A DNA stretch of 41,462 nt from positions 62,001-103,462 of the forward strand of contig JAPEUD010000079.1 in assembly GCA_026026165.1 (NCBI GenBank). Direction: 5' to 3'. This DNA comes from Sarea resinae. Its lineage: Eukaryota. The notes under the pieces were generated by a model. It was given only the letters and a program-made list of their open reading frames with translations. It ran no database searches and was not told the DNA's origin. Made by a program: the position numbers and the translations under genes. Positions 2,970 to 36,747 of the stretch are shown here, one piece after another; position 1 is the first letter of the stretch, and the number at the start of each line of letters is the position of its first letter.

Positions 2970-4666
2970 TTTGAATGATTGATGAAATTATTGGTTTGAG
3001 GCGATGAATTTGATCAGTATTCTCAGTTGAAGGCGAGTCCAGACGATGAGACGGGAGATAAATTGGGGGAAGAAGCTTCTCGGGCATTGAGGGTTTGGAG
3101 GGGTTAAGCGGGGCATCAACGTCACCATTAGCGCAGTTCGTAAACAAAATAAGAGGGGGACTTGGCTCGAAGTATTCCTCTGTACTTTCTCCGCTCTCTC
3201 TCCCAATTCCGTGGGTGGCCATTCCATGAGAAGATCAAGGAGATACCTCTATCGGAGCAATAGAGACTTCTTCACAGGTAGCTCGAGGCATCCCTCTCGA
3301 CCATCTCCCACTGACTAATTCCCCAGTGTGTCCGAACCGGCTCTCAGCTTACTGCCTTGCCCTCCGAACCTTACTCAGCTCCTAGGAATACTTCGTTATT
3401 CGCAAGATGGAATGAAGTATCACGACATCGAGAAAGGATCCAAGGATGCGTCGAAAGCAGGGACAACGGTCCCGATCATTCGTCTCCTCCCGAGTCCTTG
3501 CCGCGAATATATTGTTGATATCTATGGATGGTGGTTGAAGATATGCTAACCCGCCCAGGCTTATGAAGTTCATTGAGAAGAATCAATCATTTGGCCCAGA
3601 TGAATTGAGGACTGATCCATGGCTTCTAGCTGCTATTTACATCACGCATGGCAGAAATGCCAAGGTACAGCCCAGGTATCTCTTGTTCGAGCTGGCGGCC
3701 CTCGGCCGTCAGGAAACGGAGAAACAAAGATACAGAAGATACGTAGGTACATTAGGTACCTACTCCGGAGGTGCGAACCGATTGCTTATCTAATCGGGCC
3801 CTTGATCTTCGCTGTCGCTGTTTCACTCGGTTTCAGGGCCCTCTCACGTGCCGAGAGAGGCCCTGGATGGCCCGTGCTCAGGGCTGATCCGTCAGGGCTG
3901 TAAGAGAGACGAGCAGGTACCGTGCCAGCTCTATACGGCTCGAGCACGAGGACGAAGGAGCGCGAAACAAAGCAGAGGGCGAACGAGGGTATCGAGCGGT
4001 AGAGTAATCATCTCCAAGGGAAAGAGGACAGCCATCATGACGAAGAGGGGCTGTTGTCCTTGTTAGATATGGATCAGTCGAAGAGCTTCATTCTCAGTAC
4101 GAGTAGAGGACTCCGTCGATGATTATGTATGATGACTGCGTACGGAGGAGAGTGCATTCGGGCAAATGACTGATGGGTCTGGCGGAGTCTTGGCTGCAGC
4201 GAGAATATGATGTGATGCGAGGAGGAGGATGTTTAGGAGATGGTCTAGGAGGTTTGGGAGGTTTGGAAGGTCTACTATGGAGGTGACCTGAGGACCTCGG
4301 GACCTTGGGACTTGGGACTGGAGGTACGAATGGAAGTCACTCATCAACCTCGATGGGGCCAGCTCCTTGAGATCTCGCCGATCAACATACCGGAGCATCA
4401 GCCTCGCACCCATACACGAACCTATTCCGTTGCCGGAGTCGTCCGTTCTTCCCTTCTGATTCTTCTGATTGATGCTTCGCGACGCATCGCCCTGCCCCTG
4501 TGAGATGACATAGATCTTCTGGGCCTCGAGTGCGGCTCGCCAACCAAGAAACCCCCGTCCTTTGCTTCTTTGTCTGCCGTCGGATTCGCCGTCGCTCTCG
4601 ACCGCCGCTCGATTCCACGCACGCCCTCGTTGCTGAGATCCCAGTGCGCAACGGCGGAAGACGGCC

Positions 4667-7600
4667 ATGTCTTACTACCAGAATGGGCAGAACTATTACG
4701 GCCATCGTAATGCGGTCCAACCCCCACCGCCGCCGCCACCGCAAGCTCAGAATCATTCCATAGCGAGATCGACGAGTTTCGATGCCGGGGATGACGCTGC
4801 CCTCACCGAATCGAATCAGTCGAATAGTGGACTGGGCTTGAATAGGTACGGACGGTCGGAAGACATGGCGAACGGAGCGTATCGTGCCGGAGCCAATGTG
4901 GGAGCGGCGCAGAATGAAGACATGTACATGGGTGCACTCCCTCCACGGCCATCGCAAACAGCCCAGAGCTCGCCGTATCAGTATCAACCTCAATCTCCCG
5001 TTGCGCCCTATCAAGGCTACAATCCCCAGCAGTTCCAGCGATCTCAAACACAGTCATATCAGACCTATAGCGGTGCAAACAGCCAGTACGGCTCCGTTCA
5101 TCAGCCTTATAATCCCGCCGCCTATCAAGCGCCCAATGTTCAGCGGCATTCAAGCTCTCCTGCGCAGCCCTATGGATTCTCTCCTAGCAGTCATTCGTCG
5201 TCGACGTTTTCACATCCTTCCCCTGGCCAGCCGGCTTATGCGCCTCCCACCCCCTCGGCGCAACACCCTCCCCAGTCGCCATATTGGGATCCGGGCAGAC
5301 AGTCTCAGCATCCCACCCCGCCTACACAATACTCCCCTTATGCTGCCCAGGTCCCTCCGCAACCGACCTCTACATCTATACCTCAACAGTCCTCGGGCTA
5401 CTCTGCTCCTCCACGACTACCTCCCCGTCCTCCCCTTGAGAGCCTTCCGTCAGATGAGTATTACTCAGTGCAAGCGCAAGACACATATCGTCCAGAGACT
5501 GGGCGAAATTCATATTCGCCACGCTTTGAGAGTACACATCCCAGCCAGCGCCGTCTGCCCTCTCCCCCTCGCTATGTAGACTCCAGTACACCCGCACCCT
5601 TTTCGACGCTTCGCCGTCCATCGACTTCATCAACTCACATGGCGGAAAGCCCGCTTCCGCCTACTCCAGGACCACCTCCACCTCAACACTCGCCTCAACG
5701 GACAGATACCCTTACACGACATCCTCAATCACGCCCGCTTCCGGGACCGCCCCCTGAAGACAGTGATGCGGACTATTTCCGGAATGTCAATGGCAATGGA
5801 GTTGGAGAGCAGCAGAATGCATCTCCAGAGCTCACGCAGGATGACATCTGGAGAGAGGTAGAGGCGGCAGTGATGCGGACGGGTTCAGACTCCCGCTCGC
5901 AGAGACTCAGCCCACGCGTGGAGAGTAGTCGTCGATCGACGATTGATGAACAGCAAGAACCGCAACCGCTTTTTGCCGGCGCGAGTCACGAATCCGGATT
6001 GAACAATGGAGGACACGTGAATGGTCAGATAAGCGCAACAGGATCCGGTCAATATGTCAACTACGCCCCATACAGTGATGAGAGCGATGCAGAGGCCGCA
6101 GCAGGACTGGCAGCGATGAACATGGCCGATCAACAGGACTTGGCGGATCAGGCCCGTGGTATGGGCGGCGGTATGTTTCGTGGCTATGGGCCGGGCCAAC
6201 ACTCGGATGACCAAGGTCCTGCAGAGCAAGATCTCGAAGAACCAGACAGCGATAGTGCTTACGGCGTGGATATTGACCTCTACGGGGGAGGGTATGGAGG
6301 GGCTCACTTGCACTACGGAGACGATGTCGGCCACAAAATTCACGAGGACCAAGGCGCAGCAGAGAGCACCAGTCGTCCACTACCAACGCCCGGATCTGGA
6401 GCAGACTCGGGCGATGACTATGGGTACGACTATCCTTTGGACTATCAGGATACGATGCTTCCGTACGCGCCCGTCAAGGTTGACGCTTTCGGTACCGGCG
6501 GGCTGTCAGAACCAACCGCTGGGCGACGGAGGCTGAGTTTCGATGAGGGTGATGAGGTAACATTGGCAGAGTCTGATATGGGTGACCAAGTGACCTTGGC
6601 CGAGTCTGATATCACTGGGATGTCGTCAATGGGCAGCGCTACCAAAGAAGACATGCCCGATTTGTTCTACCACCCGGGACCGTCCCAGAGGTCTTTACCC
6701 CAGGCACCGGATCAAGCAGTCTTGATGCCAGGAGGACCTTATCAACGCTTTCCGGAATTCCAACAGCCTCCACCTACTGATCGTCATTTCTTATCCGCCG
6801 CAGCAAATAGGGATCAAACAACCTCTCCAGGTCCGCTCGGCCCTCGCTCTACGTCGCTTTCGAGTCATAGTAGTACTCCCCAAATGATCCCCCCCATAAG
6901 GTCAAAGACCGATGCTGAAGAGCGTCGCGTGAGGCTCTTGAAACAGCAGCTAGAATATAGGCTCGAGAACGCTGATACTCCAGTAACGTCGAGCATCACA
7001 CTTGACCTTCCGGCGATCCCCCTGGGACGAATGCTGAATCCCGCCAAGCTATCGAATTCCGATTTCAAGAAGTGTACGGAGCCTTGGGCTCTTAGCTCCA
7101 TTGCTGCATGGGTCAAGGAGATGAGTGAGGGATCCACTGATCTGAAGAAACATACTATCGTCGATGGAATCGTTGCTCTCTTCACTCACAAAGTGCCCAC
7201 GATGAACACTGCTGATGCAGAGACGCTTGGTGCTCGGGTTGTCAAGGACATGTTCGAAGCCGGAGCTCTGATCAAGGAGGAGGAATGGGTCAAACTTGGG
7301 GTAACGACGGAAATGACCGGAGTGATCTTTCAATTGACCGGGAGCGGTTGCTATTCTCCAAAGTCGCACAGTCAAACAATGGCCGGGAGATGTTACGCCC
7401 CTCATTGTCAAAGGACTCTCAAGAAAATCAACCTCCAAGCACAACTGTTGGAGCCACAGCGAAAGCTCGAAGATTGGATCACCTTTTACAAATTCAAGAA
7501 AGAGGATCTTGAAGGGGTCCACAAAAAGGAAATTGAACGGCAGAACATCTTGCATGAAATAGTGCAAACAGAAGATATCTTCATGGATCAACTAGATGTC

Positions 7601-10240
7601 TTGCGGCTTCTGTACCGAGATCAGCTTCGAAAGACTAACCCACCCGTCCTCGCGCCAAAAAGGATAGACAAGTTCGCCACCGAGGTATTCGGTAAAGTGG
7701 ACGCAGTCAAAAAGGCAAACGAAGAGTACCTTCTCCCACAGCTCAAATATCGTCAGCAGGAGCAAGGACCGTGGATTGTCGGTTTTAGTGATATCTTCAG
7801 AGAGTGGATACGGAAAGCCAAGGTTGCCTACATAGAATATGCGGCGAACTTTCCAAATGCGACCTTTGTTGTCCGGAAAGAAGCAGAACGTAATATTCAA
7901 TTCCGGAATTTCCTCGACCAGATGAGAGATAATGCTCGATCGAAAAGGCTTGGATGGGACACTTATCTCAAGGCACCGATCACGAGATTGCAACGCTACA
8001 GCCTGCTTCTCGCAACTGTACACAAGAATATGTTGCAGGACACCGAAGAGAAGGCGAACTTGAAGATCGCTATCGACGAAATCAAGGCCGTGACGATGGA
8101 ATGCGACGCCCGAGTTGCTGAGATGTCGAAGAAGGTCGATTTGGCTGATCTTAATTCGAAGCTGGTCCTTAGACCGGGAATGGAACGCGTAGAACTTAAT
8201 TTGAACCATCTGGGAAGAGAATTAATCTTCAAAGGCGACTTGCAACGACTTAGCTCCAATCGATTCAATTGGCTCGAGACTCACGCTCTCCTTTTCGATC
8301 ACTATGCTGTCTTCGCAAAAACAGTCTCTCAACGGGATGCGGCTGGTGGGGTGAAGTATGAAAGATATGATGTGTCGAAGCTGGTATGTCTTTCCGTGGC
8401 CTTGGAATTCTCAGCTAACGCGGTCTAGCCAATTCCCATGGACCTGCTGGTCCTCGAGAGTACCAATGATGACACTGTGGTCAAGTCTGCGGTCAAAGGA
8501 ATCGGAGCTGTTACGACGGTGGCACCGAAGGTGTCGGGAACTATAGAAAACAGACTTGGCCGGATGGCTACGAACACTCCTCCCGCCGATGGGAGCCTCA
8601 CGCTGACGAGCACCAACACGTCCTCCGCATCAAATGGTACGCCCAATGCGAACAGAATCGTCACGAACACCGTCCTCGAGGGTTCGAAAGATGATAAGAT
8701 ACTGTACCCCTTCCGGGTCAAGCACCTGGGAAAGGCGGAAGTCTACACACTGTATGCGCCCACAGCGCAGAATCGACGAGACTGGTGCGACAAGATCATC
8801 GAGGCCAAAACCCGACATGCCGCGTCTCTGTTTGCGCAAAACGCCGAGCCGTTTCGGCTCAGAGTGATCGCTGATACTGCGTTCGGTTATGACACAATGT
8901 CTGGTGGCTCGAAGAGTATCAGCATTCGAGGAACGCCACTCGATCGTGCCATCCGAGAAGTTGAATCGAATTTCAAGACTGTAGGACCGAGACCGGGTCC
9001 AGTCTGCAGAGCGGCTGTCAATTGCGCCACGGCTTTCAATCAGCCTCCTGGCAATCCGATGGTGGCTGTGGGTACTGATTATGGAGTTTTCATCTCTGAA
9101 GCGGATAATCCACGAGGCTGGAGAAAGGTCAGTCTGTTTTATACACATGTAATAGGCTAGTTGCTGACAAGAGAACCAGGCCACCAACACCCCACCGCGC
9201 GTCACCCAAATAGCTGTTTTGGAAGAGTTCGGCCTCATGCTACTCATTGCCGACAAGTCTCTCATCGCGTACCACCTCGACGCCGTCTGTCCGGTTAATG
9301 GCGCCGCGCCAGCCAACGACTCCATCAGACGCGCACCACAGAAGCTCTCAGGAACACGAGACGTGGGCTTCTTCGCTACGAGCACCATGAAAGACCGAAC
9401 GCTAGTGTTTTACAAGAAGCGTGAAGGCCTTTCATCGACCTTTAAGGTGCGTACTTCCTGAATGCTCGGGGCATCCCAATCTCGCCTCAATCTTCCAGCT
9501 TTTAGCTTCCCATCTCCCAAAGACGTACTGACTCTAGCCCCGAATTTCAATTCAAACAGGTACTCGAACCCGTCTTTCAGAAGTCGACGCCAAAAACCTC
9601 CCGCTTCCTCCTCTCGTCCGCCGCTCTCCGCAACCGTGGCACCACGGAATACTTCCGGACATATGACGAGTTTTATATCCCGTCCGACTGCTTCTCGCTG
9701 AATCTCTTCCACTCGTCACTCGCGGTTGCCACCGCGCGCGGCTTCGAGGTGCTCACCCTCGACAAGAAACAGCCCTTCTCCGTCCCCGACCTCAAGGCCC
9801 CGCACGTCGTCACCATCGCCAATCGTCTCGCGGGCCAGAAACCACTGGGGATGTTCCGGCTCGGCGAAGAAGGCGATGGCAGCATGCGCGGTGACGGTGG
9901 CGGCGGCCAGGCCCAGGAGTTCCTGCTGTGCTACGAAGAATGCGGTGTCTACGTCAACCGGCACGGCGACGTGTCGCGGTCGGTGATTATGGAATTCGTG
10001 GGCCGGGCGCGGGCGGCGTGCATGGTGCGCGGCTTCCTGGTGCTCTTCGACCACGAGTTCGTCGAGGTGCGCAACGCGGTCAATGGCCGCCTGCGCCAGG
10101 TCGTGCAGGGCCGCGATGTCCGGTTGCTGGACGATGGCGGGGCGCGGGGCGGCGCCGTCAAGGTCTGCATGCAACATCCCGAGTTCGAGCGCTGTCAGAT
10201 CGTCTTTGAGTTGGTGCTTAATGAGGGTACGAAGGAGTAA
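4667..10240 (+). CDS. Rho guanine nucleotide exchange factor with DH, PH and CNH domains (Rgf3/Tus1-like, Rom2 family), about 1787 aa
   Basis: Exons 4667-8383, 8429-9127, 9180-9446, 9560-10240; all three introns are GT-AG and phase 0. Long P/Q/S-rich N-terminus, DH motifs (EIERQNILHEIVQTE; YLKAPITRLQRYSLLL), PH region (RELIFKGDL; LLFDHY; YPFRVKHLG..YTLYAPT), and CNH region (VAVGTDYGVF; VTQIAVLEEF; EFLLCYEECGVYVNRHG). The Rgf3 rather than Rgf1/Rom2 assignment is from recalled motifs (LTGSGCYS..RCY..HC). Confidence 0.9.
6548..6613 (+). repeat. 33-nt tandem duplication within the GEF coding sequence (GDEVTLAESDM / GDQVTLAESDI)
   Basis: ggtgatgaggtaacattggcagagtctgatatg is followed directly by ggtgaccaagtgaccttggccgagtctgatatc. 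Confidence 0.85.
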
Positions 10241-16127: not shown

Positions 16128-19100
16128 CTACAAAGTCTCTGAAGGTCCAGTACCACTCGGAGGGGATTGAGGACCAGCAGAGCTCAGCGGCGCTGTGGCC
16201 GGGTTCTCGCCATCGTAGATGCCCTCGTCCGGCTTGACTTCGTACCGTGGTACATTGTCTTTAGCCAGGGAAGCTGGGTCAATATAGCGGCATGTAAGAG
16301 CAAAACGCAGTAAGCCCTCGGGAACGACAGCGTGCTAGGAATGTCAGCTGCAGCACGATTCAGATCACAGAGCAGGACTTACTTCATAATATTTCTGGAT
16401 GTCTGCTCCGTGCATGATGACAATGTCTCCGTGATTGAGTTCGATTGTCACGGCAGCTGGACCATGCTTAGATTTGATCTTGAAGGCACTGACAATGGAC
16501 TTCCCCTTTGCATCCCGACCCTCAGGTGAGGTCGCGACCCACTTCTCATATTCCGCCTTCCTCTCCTCATATCTACAACATCCGGGGACAGGCTTCTCGG
16601 CGACATATTTCGATTTGAAGTGCCCACAGAAGTGCTTGGCTTTCATGCGGAGGGTCATTTTCGCAGGACAGCCGACCGACAGTGTAGCTATGGTAGGCCC
16701 GAGGCCCTTCTCACCATCGTCGTGAAACTATGCACTATTGTAAGCTAAGTCGCGTCGGAATACCAAGAGAATACTCACAGAAATTGATTGGTCTTGAAAA
16801 TATCCAAGAGTGAGGAGCTCGTTGAATTCCTGGTGTGTTTTGCCCAGGTCGCCAGCCACGTATCGACCAGCCCAATTCATACGCGTTCGAGCAAGAAGAA
16901 CAGCACGGCATGCATCTTCAAAGCTACGCGAATCCACTTTAGAGACAAATTTATATGGCATACCCTGAGATCTGTTAGCATCAGCTTTCGGTTTGGGGCA
17001 TAGGGCTCACAAAGTTTGCGAGAAATTGCCGGCCGAGAAAAGGTCCAGGGACTGAGGAGGCGTCAGTGAGAAGCTTTATTAGAATCAGAGACGCTTACCC
17101 TTGCTCTGCGTAAGGCATCTTGATAGTCCGAGGTCCGCTTGTTGCAAGTCGTTCCACATTTCATCTGCGCTTCCAGCTTGCTCATTGATCGCCTTGTTCG
17201 CCACGAAATGATAAAGGAATCCACATTCAGGAACTTCATGTCGATAGATGAGCCATTGCTTAGCATGGTAGGTTTTTGTGGCTATGTTCGCACCGACTGC
17301 GTAGTTCGGGAGCCGGAAGCCCCAACCAAAAGGAGACTGTGGATCGGACAAAGCCCGGAGTGGCAAGATATTGTGAGTAACCTGACGTGTGTAGTGGCAC
17401 CCCACAGTGAGACATTGCCAGTAGCTCCACTTGATGCGACTATTGCAACGGCCGCACTGTGGACAAACAAAGCCTTTCCAGGCAGCTCGAGATACGTTAT
17501 GTCCGAACTCGACCTGAGGGTCTTCGTGAAATATACTTGGCTGTAGTTGGTAACACGTCGCCATGGTCGGGTTGGTACGGCGCTGCTTGAGAAAACGAAG
17601 GTCGTAAGACAGCTCACCAGGCGTCGCCCAACCATCCATCTTCCAAAACGCCTTGCACTTATGATTCAGACACATCCACCCTTGATTGTAGACCTGAGGG
17701 CATGACTGATGGCACAAATAGCACTCATTCTCAACCGGATCCGGATACTGTGCTGGAAGAGGCTGGAGTCCAGGGTCTGCCGGGCTCCACCAACTTGGTT
17801 CATTCTGCAATACCTTTTCGAAGCGGTATTTGAAGATTGTGTTCCGCCCCTCTTTCTCAGCCCACATATTGGCGACTTTGAATAGAGCGAGGACGTTGTA
17901 CTTGTGTGGGACAGCGCTGGGGCATTTTCGGTTCCCATCACCTAGAAGCAACGATACATTAGGTTTCATAAAAAACTTCGCGACATGAAGATTGCTTACC
18001 AACGATGATGACCAACGGGACGTCACGCTCCATGTTCATCCGAACGGCTTTATATTGGGCGGCGGCATCCGTCTGGTCCTTTTCAAAGACCATTTCATGT
18101 GAGTTCTCCACTTTCGTCATGCCTCCGCCCCTGTGAGCTGTTAGCTTAAGAGCCATCATCCGTAGAAGTGAGATCCTACGCTCTGGTAATAACGACCCAT
18201 CCATCCATGAAGTCTCTAATATGGGTCTCCTTATCGAGAAGAAACCCAAAAACAAACCCATCTTTATAATATGATCCGCTCTGGTGGGATTTGAAGTAAT
18301 TGATCGATTCACAGAGCGCTTGACGAGCCTGCCCGAGGTGTTTGTTAGCCATGTCTCTGCTCTCGGATTTTGTGAAGCTTGCCTCTGCCCATATCTTTGG
18401 CTGTCCCTGTGGTGGAGGTTTTGGATGGGCGAGATTGGTGAAGCGCTCTGGCACGGCGTATTGAGGGTCAAGCGGCATGAGCCACTTATTCTCCACCATT
18501 GAGACTCTTATTCGCCGCTTAAGTGCTTGCCCTTCATCTTGGGAGAAATGAGAGCTCAGGGATGCTAACGCCTCGACAGATGCTGACGAAGGCATGTATT
18601 CGGGATCGTCGGCGAGTCTCATCATCAAGCGACTGCCCGACTCTCCATCACACGCAACACTGTTCACTTCACAATTGTGGCAAACATTGCCCCGGTCGCA
18701 CGAAATGTGGCTCGAAGCACAGCTAATCCGATTCAGCATTTATCAAAAGCAGAGATTCAGAGACTATATCAGACCTTGTGCACGGTCGAGGGACCCAGAG
18801 CTCCCCAGCGACCAGTCGGATCATAGAGACGTCGTAGTTTTCAGCCAGTCGTGAGAGGAATTCATTATCAACTTTCTGAGATGCCAAGGACGCCTCTTCC
18901 ATAGTGCAATGTACTGCTGAGGCCAAAATGTTTTCAGCGACATCCATAGGCTCTGGTCCTAAGGAGTGAGTGTCAGATTGCTAACGGTAACCTTCAGTGA
19001 AGGGCAAAATTTACCATGTTCACGTTCTCTTGTCACCTTCTGACGTTTTGCAACGGTGTCTGCACTATGGGAGACATCATAGCCTTGATCCTCACGTTCA

Positions 19101-19445
19101 TGTTTATTTGAGCCGGTCAATGTTGAATCAATACCGGATGATGCCTAAGGGGGAAGTTAGCGCGGGCAACCGTGTTATGAACTGAGCTTGTGCTGTTGAC
19201 TGAAATGAGACAACCTGAATAGATAGCCAAGTCGGATATGCTACCGCATTAAAGAATCGTACGGAAAAGAGTTGTCCAATTCGAGAAAGATGAGCTCTCT
19301 GCAGACTTACAAGTGTGACTGTGCCGACTGGTTCATCTTGAGATGCTGGCTGTGAGCGCGGCTTTGCCTTGATATTGCGTTTCTTGCCTTGAGCTTTGGG
19401 AGCGGGGTCAGTCTTCATTTTCTTCGTACGCGAGCCTTTCGCCAT
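16128..19445 (-). CDS. Fungal AlkB-family 2-oxoglutarate/Fe(II) dioxygenase with an N-terminal Zn2Cys6-like motif, probable SRA-like region and Cys4 motifs, about 896 aa, 11 exons
   Basis: Exons 19445-19311, 19144-19015, 18958-18775, 18722-18383, 18328-18180, 18130-18000, 17941-17099, 17051-17011, 16964-16779, 16727-16383, 16334-16128 (2691 nt). Catalytic signature: FNELLTLGY..FHDDGEKGLGPTIATLSVG (HxD), LNHGDIVIMHG, YYEHAVVPEGLLRFALTCR (distal His and RxxxxxR). The C-terminal exons are well supported; the first three exons and the true start are less certain. Confidence 0.85.
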
Positions 19446-19970: not shown

Positions 19971-20933
19971 TCACTCTCTGAAGCCATTTGAAGATCCGTA
20001 GTTGCTTATTTCAGGGGGCCAGAACAAGGAAAGGAAGACGAACAAAATGACAGGAGATATTGAATACCAAGGGACGGAAGATATCAAACGCGAAGAAGAG
20101 TGCCCGTGGTACTCACAACGAGACTTGCGCTGTTTTTTGCTTGAACTTTTTGCCTTTGGCGGAAATACTGGCTTGTGCCTTGCAGGAGCCGGTAGCTTGC
20201 ACTGCAAGGAAGGCGCAGAGTTGGGTTTTGCCAGAGCAGAATTGACTGCAGGAGGCAGATCGTCAAGGGAATTTTTGGTGGCAGTGCGTAGGGCATGGCG
20301 CTCCGAGAACCTTTCTGGTAGTTGGAGCTCTGCAGCCTGGGCCAGTCTGATGCTCTCGCCTTTCTTTGAACGCTTCCGGGGCCACGTTGTGGTCGGCTTC
20401 ACTTTAATGATTTCATTTGGCTCATTCGCAATCTGGGTGCTACTTGTACTGCCTGGAGAGCTATGAGGAGACTCCATTTCAGCATCATTGAGGTCGAAGA
20501 CGGACGAAGTGAAAGTCGATAGTGGCGAAGATGGTGGATCCTCTGAAGAGCAAGCACCCTGGTCGCCGTTTGGCCTGTCTGGTCTCGTTTCCGGATTCGA
20601 ATTCGATACCGGCAAAGTCTCCTCGTGTGAGTTCATTGAAGCTGCTGCCGCCTCCAGTCGAGGCAGAGAAGGCCGTAAGGATGGGCTTTCTGGAAGGGTA
20701 CGTGGCTTGCCGTATTCTCTCTGCGAGTCAATCCGACCTTCAGGACCAAGGGACAGAGGTCTCAATGCCTTGAACAGCTGATGAGTATTTGGAGGCACTG
20801 AAGAAGAAGGACGAGATGGGGGTACAGAAGAATTTGGAGAAGATGGACAAGAAGTCAAAGGACAGGAGTATGTGATGGATGTCGTCGTCGTAAGGTTAGC
20901 CACTGGTACAGTGGGGTCCCCCCCGTTCTCCAT
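19971..20933 (-). CDS. Ser/Pro-rich, probably disordered ORF; either an upstream exon of the AlkB-family gene or a separate hypothetical gene
   Basis: 320-codon ORF on the same strand as the AlkB gene, with basic clusters PRKRSKK and KKQRKSR. A strong donor T|GTGAGT lies at 20116, after which the sequence turns pyrimidine-rich and intron-like. No family recognised. Confidence 0.55.
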   Translation of the reverse strand: MENGGDPTVPVANLTTTTSITYSCPLTSCPSSPNSSVPPSRPSSSVPPNTHQLFKALRPLSLGPEGRIDSQREYGKPRTLPESPSLRPSLPRLEAAAASMNSHEETLPVSNSNPETRPDRPNGDQGACSSEDPPSSPLSTFTSSVFDLNDAEMESPHSSPGSTSSTQIANEPNEIIKVKPTTTWPRKRSKKGESIRLAQAAELQLPERFSERHALRTATKNSLDDLPPAVNSALAKPNSAPSLQCKLPAPARHKPVFPPKAKSSSKKQRKSRCEYHGHSSSRLISSVPWYSISPVILFVFLSLFWPPEISNYGSSNGFRE

Positions 20934-22663
20934 TCTCGCAGCGGTACGCGTTTGAACAGCAGGTTCATCAGTGATGGATCAGCGATGATCAGGGCAGTCA
21001 GAGCTTTGTGACTTTTCACTCCCGTCCATAGCCCGCGGCTTGGACTGGGGGTCGATATCGATATCTGGCGTTCGGTGATGGGCGACGGAGCAGTTGCACT
21101 GGACCAAGGTGATTCCCAGCACGATCTCACTGGATGGTATAAAGGATTTTCAAATCAGAATATATATGTTTGCAGTCTCTTCTGAGCTTCTCTCCATGCT
21201 CCCATGCTCCCAATCAACGACTACGAAGAACGCACTTCGGTGGTTGCCTTCTGCCCACCTCTGGCCCCGAACATTTCGGTTGGACACCTGCAAGGGTCCA
21301 ACCTTGTCCACATCAGGGCAGCGAGTAGCACATACGAATTCGTACATAGTAGTAGATGGATAAGGTAGCCTGTGCGACATATCAGTGGGAACGTTGGAAT
21401 TGGCTTGACCGGTAAAAGGAAATTGGCAACGACGTTCGGAACGATGGGGGTCTGATGATGGTGATGGGTCGACATCTGTCAAACATACATAGTAGAGTCG
21501 GCCACAGGCATCCATGATACCATAGGAGCGTCCATTACTTCCAGTACTAACCTCATGGAAGTCTACCTTACTATGTACAGCTTCTCCCGCTGTTCACGTA
21601 GGTAAATCCCGAGCGACTGCCGGGCAACTACGAAGTACTACCTTCGTATCTTGCTTCCTACCCGGCCCAGATCTAGGTCGGCTCCGCATGAGTACGAGTA
21701 CCTAGACACCTACAATACATAGGTACCTAGTGTGCATCAAATCTATCACAATGGCCTTGACGGTAGAGACAAATACTGTAGAACGGCTGCAGGAGAACGG
21801 ACCGACACACACAGCCCGAGCATCCATACCTCCACTGCATCTCCGAGCCTTTGCATACAATTGGTCCGCAGTAGTTCATCGTACATACCATGAATCCTAA
21901 GAGTGCCAGTAGATCGAAAAGTACAGCACAAGTAGACAGTTCTGCACTAGGCCTCTCTTGCCGATCACCTCGACCTAAATGACTAGGTACTAATGTACTC
22001 CGGTAAATGTATCCTTGGATGGCGCTCTCCTGAAGTACTCGAGTACGCCCTAAGCAGGGTTGAAGGGGCCCTGAATGCGGGGTTCAACACTGTACCGCAC
22101 CGCACCGCACTGCATTGTATCCATCCATGGGGTGCAATGTCATGGCGGTCCTCTGGCTTATTACGACTATCGATCCCACCGCCGTTTGCTATTGATCGAA
22201 CCAACAGAGGTCGAGCAGAGCTAGAGTACAGTAGTCTTCTGATCCATCACTCCGCAGTCTCCGTTCTGCCCCCACAATGTCATCAGATGAGGCTCTAGCT
22301 GGCAGATTCATCTGAATAGCCAATTCGGCCTACGCTGTACTTATCTATTCCTATACCCGGGCAATTGTGACGTCTGAGCCGCAGATGTACTTTGCAGAAC
22401 GAAGAGACAGCTTTGCAACCTGCCAAGCGCCCACGATTGTGAAGTCACTGAAGTGGGGGTTTGTTGCTGCATCGCAGGGACAGTAGCTGCATCTGCGGAT
22501 GAGAATTCGCCGCCTTCACAACCGAAGCTTGAGCCGCACTGCGCAGTATCTTTTTATTTAGTTGCTCATGCCCCATGCCTAAGTATCTTCTGTTTTCAGA
22601 TGCGAGGAACCGTCTCTTACCGGCTACTGTCAACCGTTGCTGAGAACGCTGCATCCTGCGACC

Positions 22664-24705: not shown

Positions 24706-25129
24706 AAGAAGGCATGGAATTTATGAAAGGTTTACGACTGAGGAACTTTGAGCGAAGGCAATAGAACAGATGTATCTACATCTGGAGCCACGACTACTGA
24801 GTGTATATATGTTAAATAGTTGCAATATATTGACACTCAACGAGAAGAAAAACGACGTTACCATTCAGTAGTCATGTCGAGGATAATGTTTGTCTCGTTT
24901 GCACGAGATGACGCGCGAAGCGAAAATGTCCCACTAGATAGCAGTTCAGCAAAACATTTCTAAGCAGCGCTGGAGAAACACTCAACACCATAAACTTGAT
25001 CGTCCTCTGTCAAATCATCACCACCATCATCATCATCACTCCTTTGCAGTTCTTCAAGTTGCGCAATCTTTCCTTACCAAGATCGGCTCGTCATTCCCTG
25101 CGGTGCTCTTCTCGCCGTAAGACGCCGCC

Positions 25130-26761
25130 ATGTCGGCTTCCAACATGCCCCACCAAGAGGAGCCGCCCGAGGACGAAGGAGACGTCATGCTCGACCCCGC
25201 CGAAGCGGGCGAAGAAATTCCCGAAGACGAGGACTTCCCAATGGGCTCTGATGGCGAGGACGAGGAGGAAGACCCTTCTGCAACTCTGGAAGAGATTCAA
25301 CTCCAAAACGACTCCGTCGCCCACTTCGACGCCCATAAAGACAGCATCTTCTGCATCGCCCAGCATCCCATCCACCCTGAAATCGTCGCCACCGGTGCTG
25401 GTGATGACACGGCCTACATATTTGACGCTACTCCTCCCGAAACTCCCGTCCTACCCGCTAGCTATCAATCTGCACCGTCTACGCAACCACAAGAGCGCGA
25501 TTCCCTCCGCGCCATCTATAAATGCGAAGGCCACACCGATTCCGTAAACGCTATCACCTTCACCCTTCCCAGAGGCGAATACGTCCTCACCGCAGGGCTA
25601 GACGGCCGCCTCCGCGCCTACAAAGACGCCTCATCCTCCCTCAACGGCCAGAACTGGACCTTCCTATCCACCGTCCAAGAAGTCGAGGAGATCAACTGGC
25701 TAATACCCTGCCCACATCCCTCCTATCCGAATACGATCGCCCTAGGTGCCAATGACGGCTCTGTCTGGATCTATACCGTCAACGCCGCTGACACGGCCAG
25801 TCCTCTGACCATTGTGCAAGCTTTCTACCTCCATACCGAATCCTGTACCGCGGGCGCCTGGTCTCCAGACGGCAAGCTCCTCGCCACCGTCTCGGAAGAC
25901 TCCAGCCTCTACGTGTGGGACGTGTTCTCGGAAGCCGCAGCGGCCGGGCTGACGCAGACCGAGGGCTCATCAGGCGGCCAGACCGTCGTGGGCCTCACCG
26001 CAGCAGACCAGCGCTTCGCCGTCGAAGGCGGCCTCTACAGCGTCGCCATCTCGCCTACAGGCACCTTCGTCGTGGTCGGCGGCGCAGAAGGAGGCATCCG
26101 CGTCATCGGCCTCCCCCGAATCGGCGCCCTTACGTCTTCGTCCACGGGCGCGCGCGGCTCCGGTGCGGCCAGCAAATCCGCAGGCGGCAAGCGCAGCGGC
26201 GGTCCCAACAATCTCTCCACCTCCTCGAGCCCGAGCGCAGGCCAAGCCGGCACGATCCTCGCCGCGCTGCAATCGCAATCGGACGGCATCGAAACGCTGT
26301 CGTTCTCGTCGCCTCCGCTGACGCTGTTGGCGGCCGGCAGCGTCGACGGCAGTATTACTCTCTTCGACACGGCGCATCGCTTCGCCGTGCGCCGACACAT
26401 CAAGGACGCGCACGAGGAGTTCGCCGTCGTCAAGGTCGATTTCGTCCGGCCGGCTGGTGGCGCACAGGCCCAGGCTCAAGCCCAGGCCCCGGCTGCCGGC
26501 GCCGCCACAGCGAGCAGTAGCGCCAGTGGCGGCTGGCTGCTCACGTCGTGCGGCATGGACGGCGTGGTGCGGCGCTGGGACACGCGCGGCGGCACCGCGG
26601 CCGCGGGCCAGGGCCTCGTGGGCGAGTGGAGGGGTCACAGGGGCGATGGCGAGGGAGGCGGGGTCCTGGGGTTCGTTCAGGGCGGTAGAGGGGGCCGGGA
26701 TATAGTTACTGCGGGCGATGACGGCGTGAGTTTGGTTTTTGATGCGTCTTCTACCGCATAA
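25130..26761 (+). CDS. SQT1: WD40 beta-propeller 60S ribosome assembly factor (Rpl10/uL16 chaperone, Sqt1/AAMP family), 543 aa, intronless
   Basis: Acidic N-terminus followed by NDSVAHFDAHKDSIFCIAQHP, ATGAGDD, GHTDSVNAITF, TAGLDG, EVEEINWL and GANDGSVW, then further WD repeats ending VTAGDDGVSLVF. Confidence 0.88.
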   Translation: MSASNMPHQEEPPEDEGDVMLDPAEAGEEIPEDEDFPMGSDGEDEEEDPSATLEEIQLQNDSVAHFDAHKDSIFCIAQHPIHPEIVATGAGDDTAYIFDATPPETPVLPASYQSAPSTQPQERDSLRAIYKCEGHTDSVNAITFTLPRGEYVLTAGLDGRLRAYKDASSSLNGQNWTFLSTVQEVEEINWLIPCPHPSYPNTIALGANDGSVWIYTVNAADTASPLTIVQAFYLHTESCTAGAWSPDGKLLATVSEDSSLYVWDVFSEAAAAGLTQTEGSSGGQTVVGLTAADQRFAVEGGLYSVAISPTGTFVVVGGAEGGIRVIGLPRIGALTSSSTGARGSGAASKSAGGKRSGGPNNLSTSSSPSAGQAGTILAALQSQSDGIETLSFSSPPLTLLAAGSVDGSITLFDTAHRFAVRRHIKDAHEEFAVVKVDFVRPAGGAQAQAQAQAPAAGAATASSSASGGWLLTSCGMDGVVRRWDTRGGTAAAGQGLVGEWRGHRGDGEGGGVLGFVQGGRGGRDIVTAGDDGVSLVFDASSTA

Positions 26762-33257: not shown

Positions 33258-36200
33258 ATGTTCAACTTCACAAATCTAATCCAGAAGGCGCAGTCCTTTA
33301 TCGATCCGTCCCTTGCACAAAACACCTTTAGCGCCGATCGCAAACCCTCGAAAGCCACTCTCTTTCGCCATCAGTTCAGACTGCCCGACAGTCAATCGCC
33401 CATACAAGAGATACCTGCCGAACTGACGCTGTCATTGCCTTTCACAGCATCATCCGTTGGAGTCACCCAAGGCGAGAAAGAGCGCGATAGAGGAAACCAC
33501 TATGTTGGCAGGCTGCACTTGAGTCAGGCTTATCTGTGCTTTTCGACTCAGCCGAGTAGCTTCCTCCCATCAGCGAGCATAAGCGCCTCTAGCGTCTTCA
33601 CTGGTCAAACACATGGCGCTGGACCCGCCGGCAATGGATTCACGTTGCCCCTTTCCGCCATCAGGCGTGTCGAGCGATTGCATAGCCAGAGCTATATGTT
33701 CGCGCTTGCCATTACAACATGGAATGGCTTCAACTCATCCTCAACCCCTCAAAGCAGCACGACAGGCGCGCAAAGATTGACAATACAGCTGGCCGGAAGT
33801 CGGCAGGCATGCGAGCGGTTCTGTGACGCCCTGAAGAAAGGACTGCGAGAGGGTGTTAGAGAGGTGGAGAGCCTCAAGGCCGTGGTCGCTGATTGCTACT
33901 CTGAATACTTGCTCTCAAATGACACAAGGAAAAGCAAGGATGGTGACGGCAGTGCAGAAACAAACGACAAGGTCAGGAAGCCCCCAGATGCGGGGCTAGG
34001 AATGGTCTTCAGATACCCCGGAGACGCGCGTAAGCTCCGTGATAGAAGTAAAATGAGACTATGGGGCGAATATATGAGAGGTATGAAGATTCTTTGCCGT
34101 GTCTCGTCTGAAGTATACTGACTGTCACAGAAAATGGTCGCAACGTAACTCTCGTTCGGCAGCCTACGTTTCATAAGTTGATCCGAGTCGGTCTTCCCAA
34201 CCGGCTGCGTGGAGAGACTTGGGAGCTCACTTCCGGATCCTTATTCCTTCGACTGCAAAATCCTCAGCTATACAACGATACTCTGTCGAAGTTTGTGGGT
34301 CGCGAGTCTCTAGCAATTGATGAAATCGAGAAAGATCTGAACAGAAGCTTGCCAGAGTATCCGGGATTTCAAAGCGAAGAAGGAATTGGCCGACTTCGAA
34401 GGGTCCTGACCGCATACAGCTGGGTCAATGAAGAGGTCGGTTATTGCCAAGCAATGAACATTGTGGTGGCTGCTCTGTTGATGTGGGTATTCTCTACAAC
34501 TACTATAGATGGCAGCTAACGGGTGGCAGTTACGTGTCCGAGACCCAAGCGTTCTATCTTTTATCCATATTATGTGACCGCCTTCTCCCAGGGTACTACT
34601 CGACGACCATGTACGGTACACTCCTGGATCAGCGTGTCTTCGAATCCTTAGTCGAGAAGACGATGCCAGTGCTTTGGGATCATCTCGTCAAATCTGATGT
34701 GCAACTCTCCGTCGTATCCCTCCCGTGGTTTCTCTCCTTATATATCAATTCAATGCCCCTTGTGTTCGCTTTCAGGGTCCTCGACGTCTTTTTTCTAGAA
34801 GGCCCAAAAGTTCTCTTTCAGGTGGGACTTGCGATCTTGCGGATAAATGGAGAGGAGCTTTTGGACGCTACAGACGATGGAGCATTCATTTCCATCCTGA
34901 AGTCTTATTTCTCGCGCCTCGAGGAGTCTGCCCATCCGAAATCGGAGAATGCAAGGCTGAGGGCTGTCACCAGATTTCAAGAGTTAATGGTTGTGGCCTT
35001 CAAGGAATTCGCTGGTATCACTCAGCACACTATTTCTGAGCAGCGGGCAAAACATAAAGATGGGGTACTGAATAACATTGAAAGCTTTGCGAAGCGGACA
35101 TCCATCCGCAATCTTGGGCCTGAAAGCAAGCGCTTGAGCGTTGAAGATTTAGGCGCCGTGTACGACCGCTTCTATGGCATTCTATATCAGAGACAGCAGA
35201 AGATGCAGATGATCCAAGAGGCAAAGGATAAGCGGGCTAAGTCGGGTGGCTCAAAGGCTATTGAGATAGTTAGCGGGCATGCTGGAAATGATGATGTGGA
35301 GGTGGGCAGAGTCGGCCTGGGCCCCAGCCCGACGATCATGGACTACGATGGATTCCGAGAGTTCCTCGCCGGTACCGCGAAATGGGCTATTACAGACTCT
35401 CCAGCGCCTTCGCAAAGAAGCTCTACCGCGGACAAAGAGAATCACTCCGCCTATGGTAACGGAAACGGCCACGGCGGAAGAAGTCGGAGCGCATCTGTCT
35501 CTACCTGGGGTCAAGAGAATCCGGAGCCAGCAGATCATGAGTTCATGCAAAGGTTATTCCGCCGTTGGGATACTGACATGAAAGATGGGCTGAGCTTACA
35601 AAATGTGGTCACGGGCCTAGCGCAAGTAAAGGGAAATAGAGATATCATGTCAAGTATAAGCTACTTTTTCGAGTTATACGACGACGATGGAGATGGCAAG
35701 GTGGACCGCGAGGGTATCTTGCGTATATCAGAAGCGCTTCTGTTTCTGTCCAGGCGTGGTCTTGGCAACGCTCTGACGCCATCCTCTTCCACAAGTGGAC
35801 TACACGATCTAGATCCTCACGGCCGCGCATTTCAAGATGAGAAGAATGGGAACATGGGCGAAAAGTTCTTAGGTAGTGTGAGTGCTTTCATTCGTCGCTG
35901 TTTCGAGTACGCCGATCCCGACCAGCCACGAGAGAAATTTTCTTCGTCCAACGATGGAGTCGTCGATACTCCGATAGAAGCTGGGGTCGAGGCTTTCAGC
36001 ATTGGTGAAGATGAAGACGAGGATCTTCTTGACCTTGGCCCAAATGGCGCAGAAGAGTCTGCTCCCGTCAAGAAAGAGACCTCCGACTCCAGCCACATTA
36101 CGGGTCTACCTACCTCTCCGAAAGTCGACGTCAAGTCTGCAAACCTTGCGCTTGACCCCGCCAATCCTCTTTATATCACCTTACCGACCTTCCGAATGGT

Positions 36201-36747
36201 TATACTCGCCGATGAGCTCCTACAGCATTTCTTTGAGACATCTTTTCCGGATTCGTTCTGGCTCTCTGAACAACCAAAGCCTGCGTCAGGACTATCTCCA
36301 ACATCGAATCTGACAACATTCTCGAATGCTGGATTCGGTAAAGTGGGCCTGCCATCGAAGGTGGCGCCAAACACACCAACCATGGGCGCCGTTCCACCAG
36401 CCAAGAGCCTTAGAGGCGTGCTGGATAATATCGTCACGGATGGGATCAGAGTTGCGGCCGAAGTCCGGAGAAGGATGGACGACGCGCAGAAGGAAATGGA
36501 GAAGAATGCGCTGAGCAGGGAAGAGGAAGAGGAGGAAGAAGAGGGTGAAGAGAAGCGAAGAGTCAGGGAAGGCGATAGGGATCTGCTCGAGGGTGCAGAG
36601 GCCGAAGTAGGGAGCATCAAGGAGAAAGAGTCGGTAGAGCTACCGTCCAGCTCACCCCCCACTGGGAGCCTGAATGTGCCAACACCCGGAGGGAGGGCCA
36701 GGAGTTCCAGTGCAGCGACTCAGAAGATCATCGAATTCGAACGGTAG
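33258..36747 (+). CDS. GYP2: TBC-domain Rab GTPase-activating protein with GRAM-like and EF-hand regions (Gyp2/Mdr1 family), about 1130 aa
   Basis: Exons 33258-34080, 34131-34482, 34530-36747 (3393 nt). Motifs [18 protein letters not shown] (GRAM-like), [15 protein letters not shown], the Arg finger [10 protein letters not shown], the Gln finger [18 protein letters not shown] and the EF-hand [16 protein letters not shown]. Confidence 0.93.

Follow-up and report, generated by a model that had tools for sequence, protein, structure and literature searches.

The main text of Iyer, Zhang and Aravind (2016; PMC4738411) describes a divergent SAD(SRA) domain fused to AlkB in several fungi, within the AlkBH3 clade, and proposes that these fungal proteins might demethylate N6-methyladenine (m6A), the SRA version being possibly not specific for 5-methylcytosine (5mC). 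In its passage on characterised fungal demethylases, a 2026 review (PMC13297926) names Dmt1 and CcTet only. Neither of the two comes from the filamentous-ascomycete group, though ascomycete filamentous fungi methylate DNA. A further paper (PMC7343188) summarises the link of cytosine methyltransferases to 3-methylcytosine (3mC) damage and ALKB2 repair. The gene considered here lies in a stretch of 41,462 nucleotides (nt) of Sarea resinae (contig JAPEUD010000079.1, positions 62,001 to 103,462; hereafter the window, whose own numbering is used), on the minus strand at 16128..19445, and all features given below are on that strand unless the plus strand is stated. Its product has the same core as the SAD(SRA)-AlkB fusions of Iyer et al., preceded by an N-terminal zinc-cluster-like module whose coding sequence is split by a conserved intron. 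Module and intron appear undescribed in the main text of PMC4738411, from which zinc-cluster terms are absent (its Figure 4 and supplements lie outside this check), and full-text literature searches returned no match for a Zn2Cys6-AlkB combination and no experimental work on the SRA-AlkB family. Where the preliminary description of this locus had left open that the fusion was already described, the SRA-AlkB core proved to be in print, and the module was not found in that main text. What was known, computationally, is the core; what is new is an ancient, intron-split, Pfam-invisible zinc-cluster-like module.

In a homologue-guided model of the gene, with exons joined by coordinates, 10 exons encode 914 amino acids (aa), with no internal stop and one terminal stop. 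Cysteines at residues 148, 151, 158, 164, 167 and 174 of this model form the pattern C-x2-C-x6-C-x5-C-x2-C-x6-C, which agrees with the general Zn2Cys6 rule (C-x2-C-x6-C-x5-12-C-x2-C-x6-8-C) given the exon junction 18775/18722. Exon 3 (18775..18958) codes for a conserved flank whose last part is a hydrophobic-aromatic stretch and then P-x-x-Cys1; its final codons are those of Cys1 (18782-18780) and Thr, after which come two of the three bases of a Ser codon. The 52-nt intron that follows (18774-18723) has GTCTGA as its donor, a branch-like CTGAA and the acceptor TAG, and it interrupts, in phase 2, the codon that precedes the one for Cys2. Exon 4 starts with the third Ser base and the Cys2 codon (18721-18719), and Cys2 to Cys6 occupy 18650..18721, with no Lys or Arg in the Cys2-Cys3 loop. 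The preliminary description had reported the intron with these signals, the spacing and the non-basic loop, and all three are present as it gave them; it was also right that the motif is hidden in the unspliced open reading frames (ORFs), the six-Cys form appearing only once the 52 nt are removed. Its protein length of 896 aa has to give way to 914 aa (homologue-guided) or 885 aa (NCBI). As it had claimed, the frame does lead into an AlkB dioxygenase in one chain; the path is not straight, exon 4 ending at 18180 with six more introns to be removed. In a regular-expression search of the six frames of the window, the contiguous five-Cys pattern (18721-18650) occurs a single time, and in 200 dinucleotide-preserving shuffles it averaged 0.015 occurrences (maximum 1), with the six-Cys pattern in none of the 200. 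These counts indicate a real cysteine pattern and not a chance one.

Four further proteins have the six-Cys module ahead of this core, namely P0049 (Piccolia ochrophora), P0099 (Geopyxis carbonaria), P0089 (Pseudogymnoascus) and P0095 (Phlyctema vagabunda). In each, the cluster comes after a conserved hydrophobic-aromatic stretch that closes with P-x-x-Cys1; the Cys2-Cys3 loop counts seven residues in the last two. Scanned with a profile of these four modules, 159 family proteins yielded five that carry it, one of them that of Sarea. A scan of metagenome contigs from the Joint Genome Institute (JGI) gave 80 loci, with the SRA-like start present in 56 and at least 900 nt upstream of that start in 45; four of these 45 (L033, L059 and the near-copies L073 and L074) carry the module. 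In each of the four an intron interrupts, in phase 2, the codon preceding that of Cys2, which is the very position and phase of 18774-18723 in Sarea; the donors of these introns are GTGGGT, GTGGGT, GTGAGT and GTAATT and their lengths 68, 68, 69 and 47 nt. Within their loci the introns run over 5128-5174 (L033), 5163-5231 (L059) and 5932-5999 (L073 and L074), and beside their near-consensus donors and CTAAC branches the Sarea intron, with its poor donor and CTGAA branch, looks degenerate.

The six Cys columns are invariant in all nine aligned modules, and the exon-3 flank of Sarea aligns with the flanks of the eight homologous modules. Exon 3 supplies the conserved flank and exon 4 the cluster, so that both exons are read as coding for one module. 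By this comparison the module is old and not a one-off of Sarea, and the earlier proposal of a lineage-specific fusion falls, the same module being found in Geopyxis, Piccolia, Pseudogymnoascus, Phlyctema and the four metagenome loci with the same intron position. The cysteine conservation which that proposal had called for does hold over the nine modules, though the nearest tree neighbours are without the module. Word-based protein searches with the N-terminal region returned only the query and two core-only relatives (P0001 residues 90-420, P0001 being the NCBI protein of the Sarea gene) or the query alone (P0095 residues 95-210), which is no evidence of absence. In P0059 of Baudoinia panamericana, residues 497-507, about 160 residues upstream of the core, read C-x2-C-x6-C with a strongly basic loop and have no Cys4-Cys6 after them; this stretch may be a remnant or a mis-spliced instance of a second kind of zinc cluster in the SRA-AlkB family.

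Judged by sequence comparison, the module resembles the fungal binuclear zinc cluster in a divergent form. When the exon-4 peptide alone was compared with the PDB sequences, PUT3 was the sole match (E 0.0087), and a four-sequence profile of Cys2-Cys6 retrieved Cep3 (E 0.0036-0.0069), PUT3 (0.052-0.09) and RSC30 (0.44), which together made up six of its seven rows; the E-values against these proteins are borderline, as is usual with a stretch of some 25 residues. The assignment to the Zn2Cys6 kind made in the preliminary description agrees with these matches. Among Atlas look-alikes of the P0099 module, the top three clusters are Zn_clus at 0.82-0.84, under the 0.9 level and therefore a lead only. 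The module shares with the Zn2Cys6 domain (PF00172; PUT3, Cep3, RSC30) the six Cys at canonical spacing, the C-D-R start after Cys3, the restriction to fungi, the place near the N-terminus and best PDB matches that are all Zn2Cys6 proteins. It differs from that domain in scoring below the Pfam cut-off in all members scanned, in a Cys2-Cys3 loop of variable length, in having its own conserved flank ahead of the cluster, in the absence of basic residues from the Sarea loop (four in PUT3 and Cep3), and in being carried by an enzyme and not by a transcription factor.

The integrity of the cluster in Sarea depends on one splice junction. A rival in-frame donor, GTGCAC (18778..18783), lies 9 nt upstream of GTCTGA and defines an intron of 61 nt; it is the donor used by P0001, and it removes three codons including that of Cys1, so that five Cys remain. 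With Sarea excluded from the profiles, the six-Cys splice scored 25.1 bits against 14.5 for the five-Cys splice on a profile of four homologues, and 33.4 against 21.8 on a profile of eight, that is, the five-Cys splice is lower by 10.6 to 11.6 bits; the matches to the model with six Cys begin at residue 113-124. Together with the intron shared by all four metagenome loci, these scores favour the junction 18775/18722, as the preliminary description had it. On this sequence evidence the junction is rather likely to be right, with the smaller remainder of probability shared by use of the rival donor alone and use of both donors.

The explanation favoured here, and held with reasonable though not full confidence, is that the 52-nt intron is genuine and ancestral, and that the six-Cys module would be an old accessory N-terminal part of a Pezizomycotina SRA-AlkB enzyme family, kept in a minority that includes Sarea and lost in most. 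A number of observations weigh against it. To begin with, both donors are weak and the NCBI pipeline chose the one at 18783. The GTCTGA donor has C at +3, with G at +5 present, and the rival GTGCAC has G at +3 and A at +5, while the eight other introns of the gene have a purine at +3 in 8/8 and G at +5 in 7/8; the comparison rests on these eight introns and, in part, on the general fungal donor consensus. With two weak in-frame donors, the six-Cys motif hinges on the choice of donor, and the sequence of the two donors by itself cannot pick between them. Furthermore, Sarea has Val where the eight other modules keep Pro before Cys4, and its cluster has a net charge of -1 as compared with 0 to +4 in the other modules, both of which could mean decay.

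The module also eludes family models and structure prediction. Pfam Zn_clus (PF00172) never reaches its cut-off of 21 bits: the exon-4 ORF with its five Cys scores 16.8 bits (E 0.0072), P0049 with six Cys scores 16.9, and no row was returned for P0089, P0095, P0099 and P0160 (E up to 10) or for P0001 (E up to 1). Scores below the cut-off are probably why the module architecture is not annotated. For P0099, AlphaFold modelled the module at a predicted local distance difference test (pLDDT) of only 49-65 and the flank at less than 35, the module containing short helices at 216-219 and 229-233; the structure-search rows cover P0099 residues 341-624 and 644-917, outside the module.

The distribution of the module adds a last difficulty. 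A HMMER (phmmer) search with P0001 brought in 1190 representatives with E no higher than 0.001, of which 368 stayed within 1e-30; among the 150 matches listed, almost all show homology that sets in no earlier than about P0001 residue 220-250. A tree of 139 rows was built by a quick method, with rows of <550 aa and ten additional cluster members (P0154-P0163) set aside; on it the rows with the module lie scattered, with five changes, no better than in shuffles. The nearest tree neighbours of Sarea with N-termini (P0009, P0002 and P0008) have 246-272 upstream residues and no Cys among them. Scattered module rows mean that many losses, or many wrong or truncated gene models, must be assumed. In this regard, P0085 (852 aa) and P0120 (556 aa), both without the module, adjoin P0089 (1255 aa) on very short branches, and such shorter models beside a module-bearing one make the annotated absence of the module unreliable. 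The idea of a module-bearing subfamily was abandoned, the module rows forming no clade on this tree.

Among the other explanations, the one that survives best, though still improbable, is that transcripts follow the NCBI splice, with its donor at 18783 and its intron of 61 nt, leaving a five-Cys remnant with no binuclear cluster: a decaying module that would be disappearing, as it has from most relatives. It has the public model P0001 on its side, as well as a purine at +3, as in the eight other donors of the gene; decay in turn would agree with the loss of the conserved Pro before Cys4, with the loop devoid of basic residues and with nearest relatives that lack the module. It would, however, turn into unconstrained intron sequence a Cys1 codon that sits at the exact x2 spacing after the conserved P-x-x; it departs from the intron position of the four homologous loci, loses on both homologue profiles by the bits given above and relies on a donor without G at +5. 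The public model itself is also open to question. P0001 (MAG: hypothetical protein M1819_006626 [Sarea resinae]; 885 aa) differs from the 914-aa model by two splice choices only. The second choice costs the SRA-like domain 26 residues (within 18131-18259, up to the exon-4 end at 18180), and these 26 residues are retained in all four orthologues compared (P0002-P0005). To judge from this alignment, the P0001 gene model is probably wrong at 18131-18259, and a model that mis-splices the SRA-like domain is no strong authority on the splicing of this gene.

It is likewise unlikely, by a similar measure, that splicing would switch the module, either by use of both donors to give zinc-competent and zinc-incompetent isoforms, or by retention of the intron and a start at the ATG at 18739 to give a truncated enzyme. 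What speaks for it are two weak in-frame donors only 9 nt apart together with a near-consensus branch site, the unusual weakness of the Sarea donor next to the stronger ones of the homologous introns, and an in-intron ATG (18737..18739) in frame with exon 4, which is the start of the 187-aa ORF that is continuous with that exon in the unspliced track. Weak donors are nevertheless common without regulated use, and an in-frame ATG may be there by chance. A transcript keeping the intron or starting internally could yield an N-terminally truncated five-Cys enzyme.

A further alternative, held to be about as doubtful, is that the module would be a working DNA-binding cluster, of altered specificity, which steers the dioxygenase to particular DNA sequences. 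Such a role would follow from homology to DNA-binding Zn2Cys6 domains, from fusion to nucleic-acid-directed domains and from those homologues that have up to three basic loop residues and a net charge of up to +4. The Cys2-Cys3 loop of canonical clusters is the part that contacts DNA. In Sarea, L059, L073 and L074 this loop has no Lys or Arg (0-3 across the eight homologues), and over the nine modules its length is 6, 7 or 11 and its residues are not conserved, as opposed to the four basic loop residues of the matched PUT3 and Cep3 segments; besides, the Pfam scan of P0001 (E up to 1) reports 2OG-FeII_Oxy_2 only. Canonical CGG reading is unlikely because the loop is non-basic, variable and unconserved and the net charge low, and the suggestion of the preliminary description that the module targets the enzyme to particular DNA sites finds no support in such a loop.

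Finally, that the cysteine pattern arose by chance in a disordered N-terminus, or that exons 1-3 belong to another gene, has hardly any probability left: family N-termini are indeed mostly unconserved upstream of P0001 residue 220-250, but the first idea was rejected on the shuffle counts, the homologue-profile scores, the Zn2Cys6 matches in the PDB and the six Cys invariant in nine homologous modules, and the second because the conserved module spans exons 3 and 4.

Turning to the core that follows the module, an SRA-like (SAD/SRA, PUA-like) domain extends over approximately 17811..18400, cut by introns 18179-18131 and 17999-17942. Against the PDB, the family profile matched the SRA domain of SUVH5 (E 2.4e-7), SUVH6 (9.1e-5) and SUVH4 (1.3e-4). 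Fold comparisons were made on the AlphaFold model of the homologue P0099 (72 aligned sequences) and not on one of the Sarea protein; its mean pLDDT is 68.6, and between about residues 330 and 900 the majority of 10-residue blocks lie above 90. The N-terminal half of this model matched TagI (Z 14.8), KRYPTONITE (13.9), the NP95 SRA (13.6) and the SUVH5 SRA (13.2). The domain is thus similar to the SRA of UHRF1/NP95 and SUVH4/5/6 by profile and fold (Z 13.2-13.9) and dissimilar by its Pfam SAD_SRA scores: PF02182 gave rows in 6 of the 16 family proteins scanned, all of them below the cut-off of 30.7 (21.0, 20.2, 18.8, 15.0, 13.6 and 12.3 bits), and returned no row for P0001, with E limits that differed between the scans of the 16 proteins.

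Between the SRA-like and AlkB domains lie two Cys-rich segments, at about 17723-17643 and 17465-17391, in which the Cys columns, as well as Trp columns, are invariant or nearly so in family alignments of 44 and 72 sequences. Both segments are probably zinc-binding, to judge from these columns. No Pfam family matched them, and their single weak sequence match was the ribosomal protein eL40 (E 0.18); they may be akin to the GRF-type zinc fingers of DNA-repair enzymes. The preliminary description had overlooked these two segments, as well as the SRA-like domain and the rival in-frame donor.

The C-terminal part of the protein is an AlkB-type 2-oxoglutarate/Fe(II) dioxygenase domain (16128..17306, start approximate), recognised by PF13532 and by matches to ALKBH3. 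PF13532 (2OG-FeII_Oxy_2; cut-off 31.2) scored 48.3 bits on P0001 and 33.9 on the exon 16727-16368 alone; of the two domains which the preliminary description expected in one chain, this one was recovered, whereas PF00172 stayed under its cut-off. A His-x-Asp motif lies within 16727-16710 (residues 732-737), a second His at 16334-16332 (residue 847) and an Arg pair within 16310-16287 (residues 855-862 of the 914-aa model). In such enzymes His-x-Asp...His provides the iron ligands and Arg binds 2-oxoglutarate. The corresponding columns are invariant or nearly so in the 44 and 72 family sequences, and by motif the AlkB domain is catalytically intact. The family profile matched ALKBH3 in the PDB (E 1.5e-8), and the closest folds to the P0099 model were 8jnr_A, which is ALKBH3 with 3mC single-stranded DNA (Z 19.9, root-mean-square deviation 2.7, 196 residues aligned), and 3h8o_A (Z 18.3), followed by FTO (17.1) and E. 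coli AlkB (15.9). Human ALKBH3 and ALKBH2, dioxygenases that repair 1-methyladenine and 3mC, are the closest known enzymes, with ALKBH3 the best match in sequence and fold, and their His-x-Asp...His and Arg motifs are kept in Sarea; unlike these single-domain proteins of about 210-290 residues, the Sarea protein has some 650 extra N-terminal residues, with the module, the SRA-like domain and the Cys-rich segments.

If the module is the old accessory part favoured above, the whole protein could work as follows. With two zinc ions bound by its six Cys, the module would fold into a small knob which, having no basic DNA-reading loop, would serve as a docking or regulatory piece towards a protein or towards nucleic acid in an unspecific way; a zinc-stabilised docking or regulatory knob is indeed preferred here over a CGG-reading domain. 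The SRA-like domain would bring the enzyme to modified bases, and the AlkB domain would oxidatively remove a methyl group, be it from 3mC or 1-methyladenine (1mA) lesions or, following the proposal of Iyer et al., from m6A. The protein could then act as an SRA-guided, ALKBH3/2-like enzyme that repairs 3mC-type lesions where methylation is laid down.

As to the remaining features of the locus, exons 1-5 of the 914-aa model lie at 19445-19311, 19144-19015, 18958-18775, 18722-18180 and 18130-18000, and exons 6-10 at 17941-17099, 17051-17011, 16964-16779, 16727-16383 and 16334-16128. The neighbouring genes are ordinary and unrelated to the SRA-AlkB gene: an RGF3-type RhoGEF (4637-8425), a WD40 protein (25121-26758) and a RabGAP-TBC protein (34432-36744), all on the plus strand. 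As the upstream neighbour, the minus strand at 19974-20978 holds a Ser/Pro-rich open frame of 335 codons, for which Pfam gave no match at E up to 0.001.

With its large size and its intact catalytic residues, the family would be an obvious candidate for the repair or erasure of methylated bases, and the module carried by part of it offers a handle on how the enzyme is recruited or regulated. The Zn2Cys6 fold, usually a transcription-factor marker, has here an enzyme-borne branch. The case also illustrates how automated annotation hides an architecture, the public model losing one of the six Cys and 26 residues of the SRA-like domain. A bolder view, offered as a long shot, is that the module represents a non-transcription-factor branch of the Zn2Cys6 fold that provides a second targeting layer (towards DNA or RNA structure, sequence or a chromatin partner) for an SRA-guided AlkB demethylase, with the dual-donor intron acting in Sarea as a zinc-binding splice switch. 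If that were true, the family would include an enzyme that erases base methylation at selected loci, in fungi with genomes shaped by cytosine methylation and repeat-induced point mutation (RIP).

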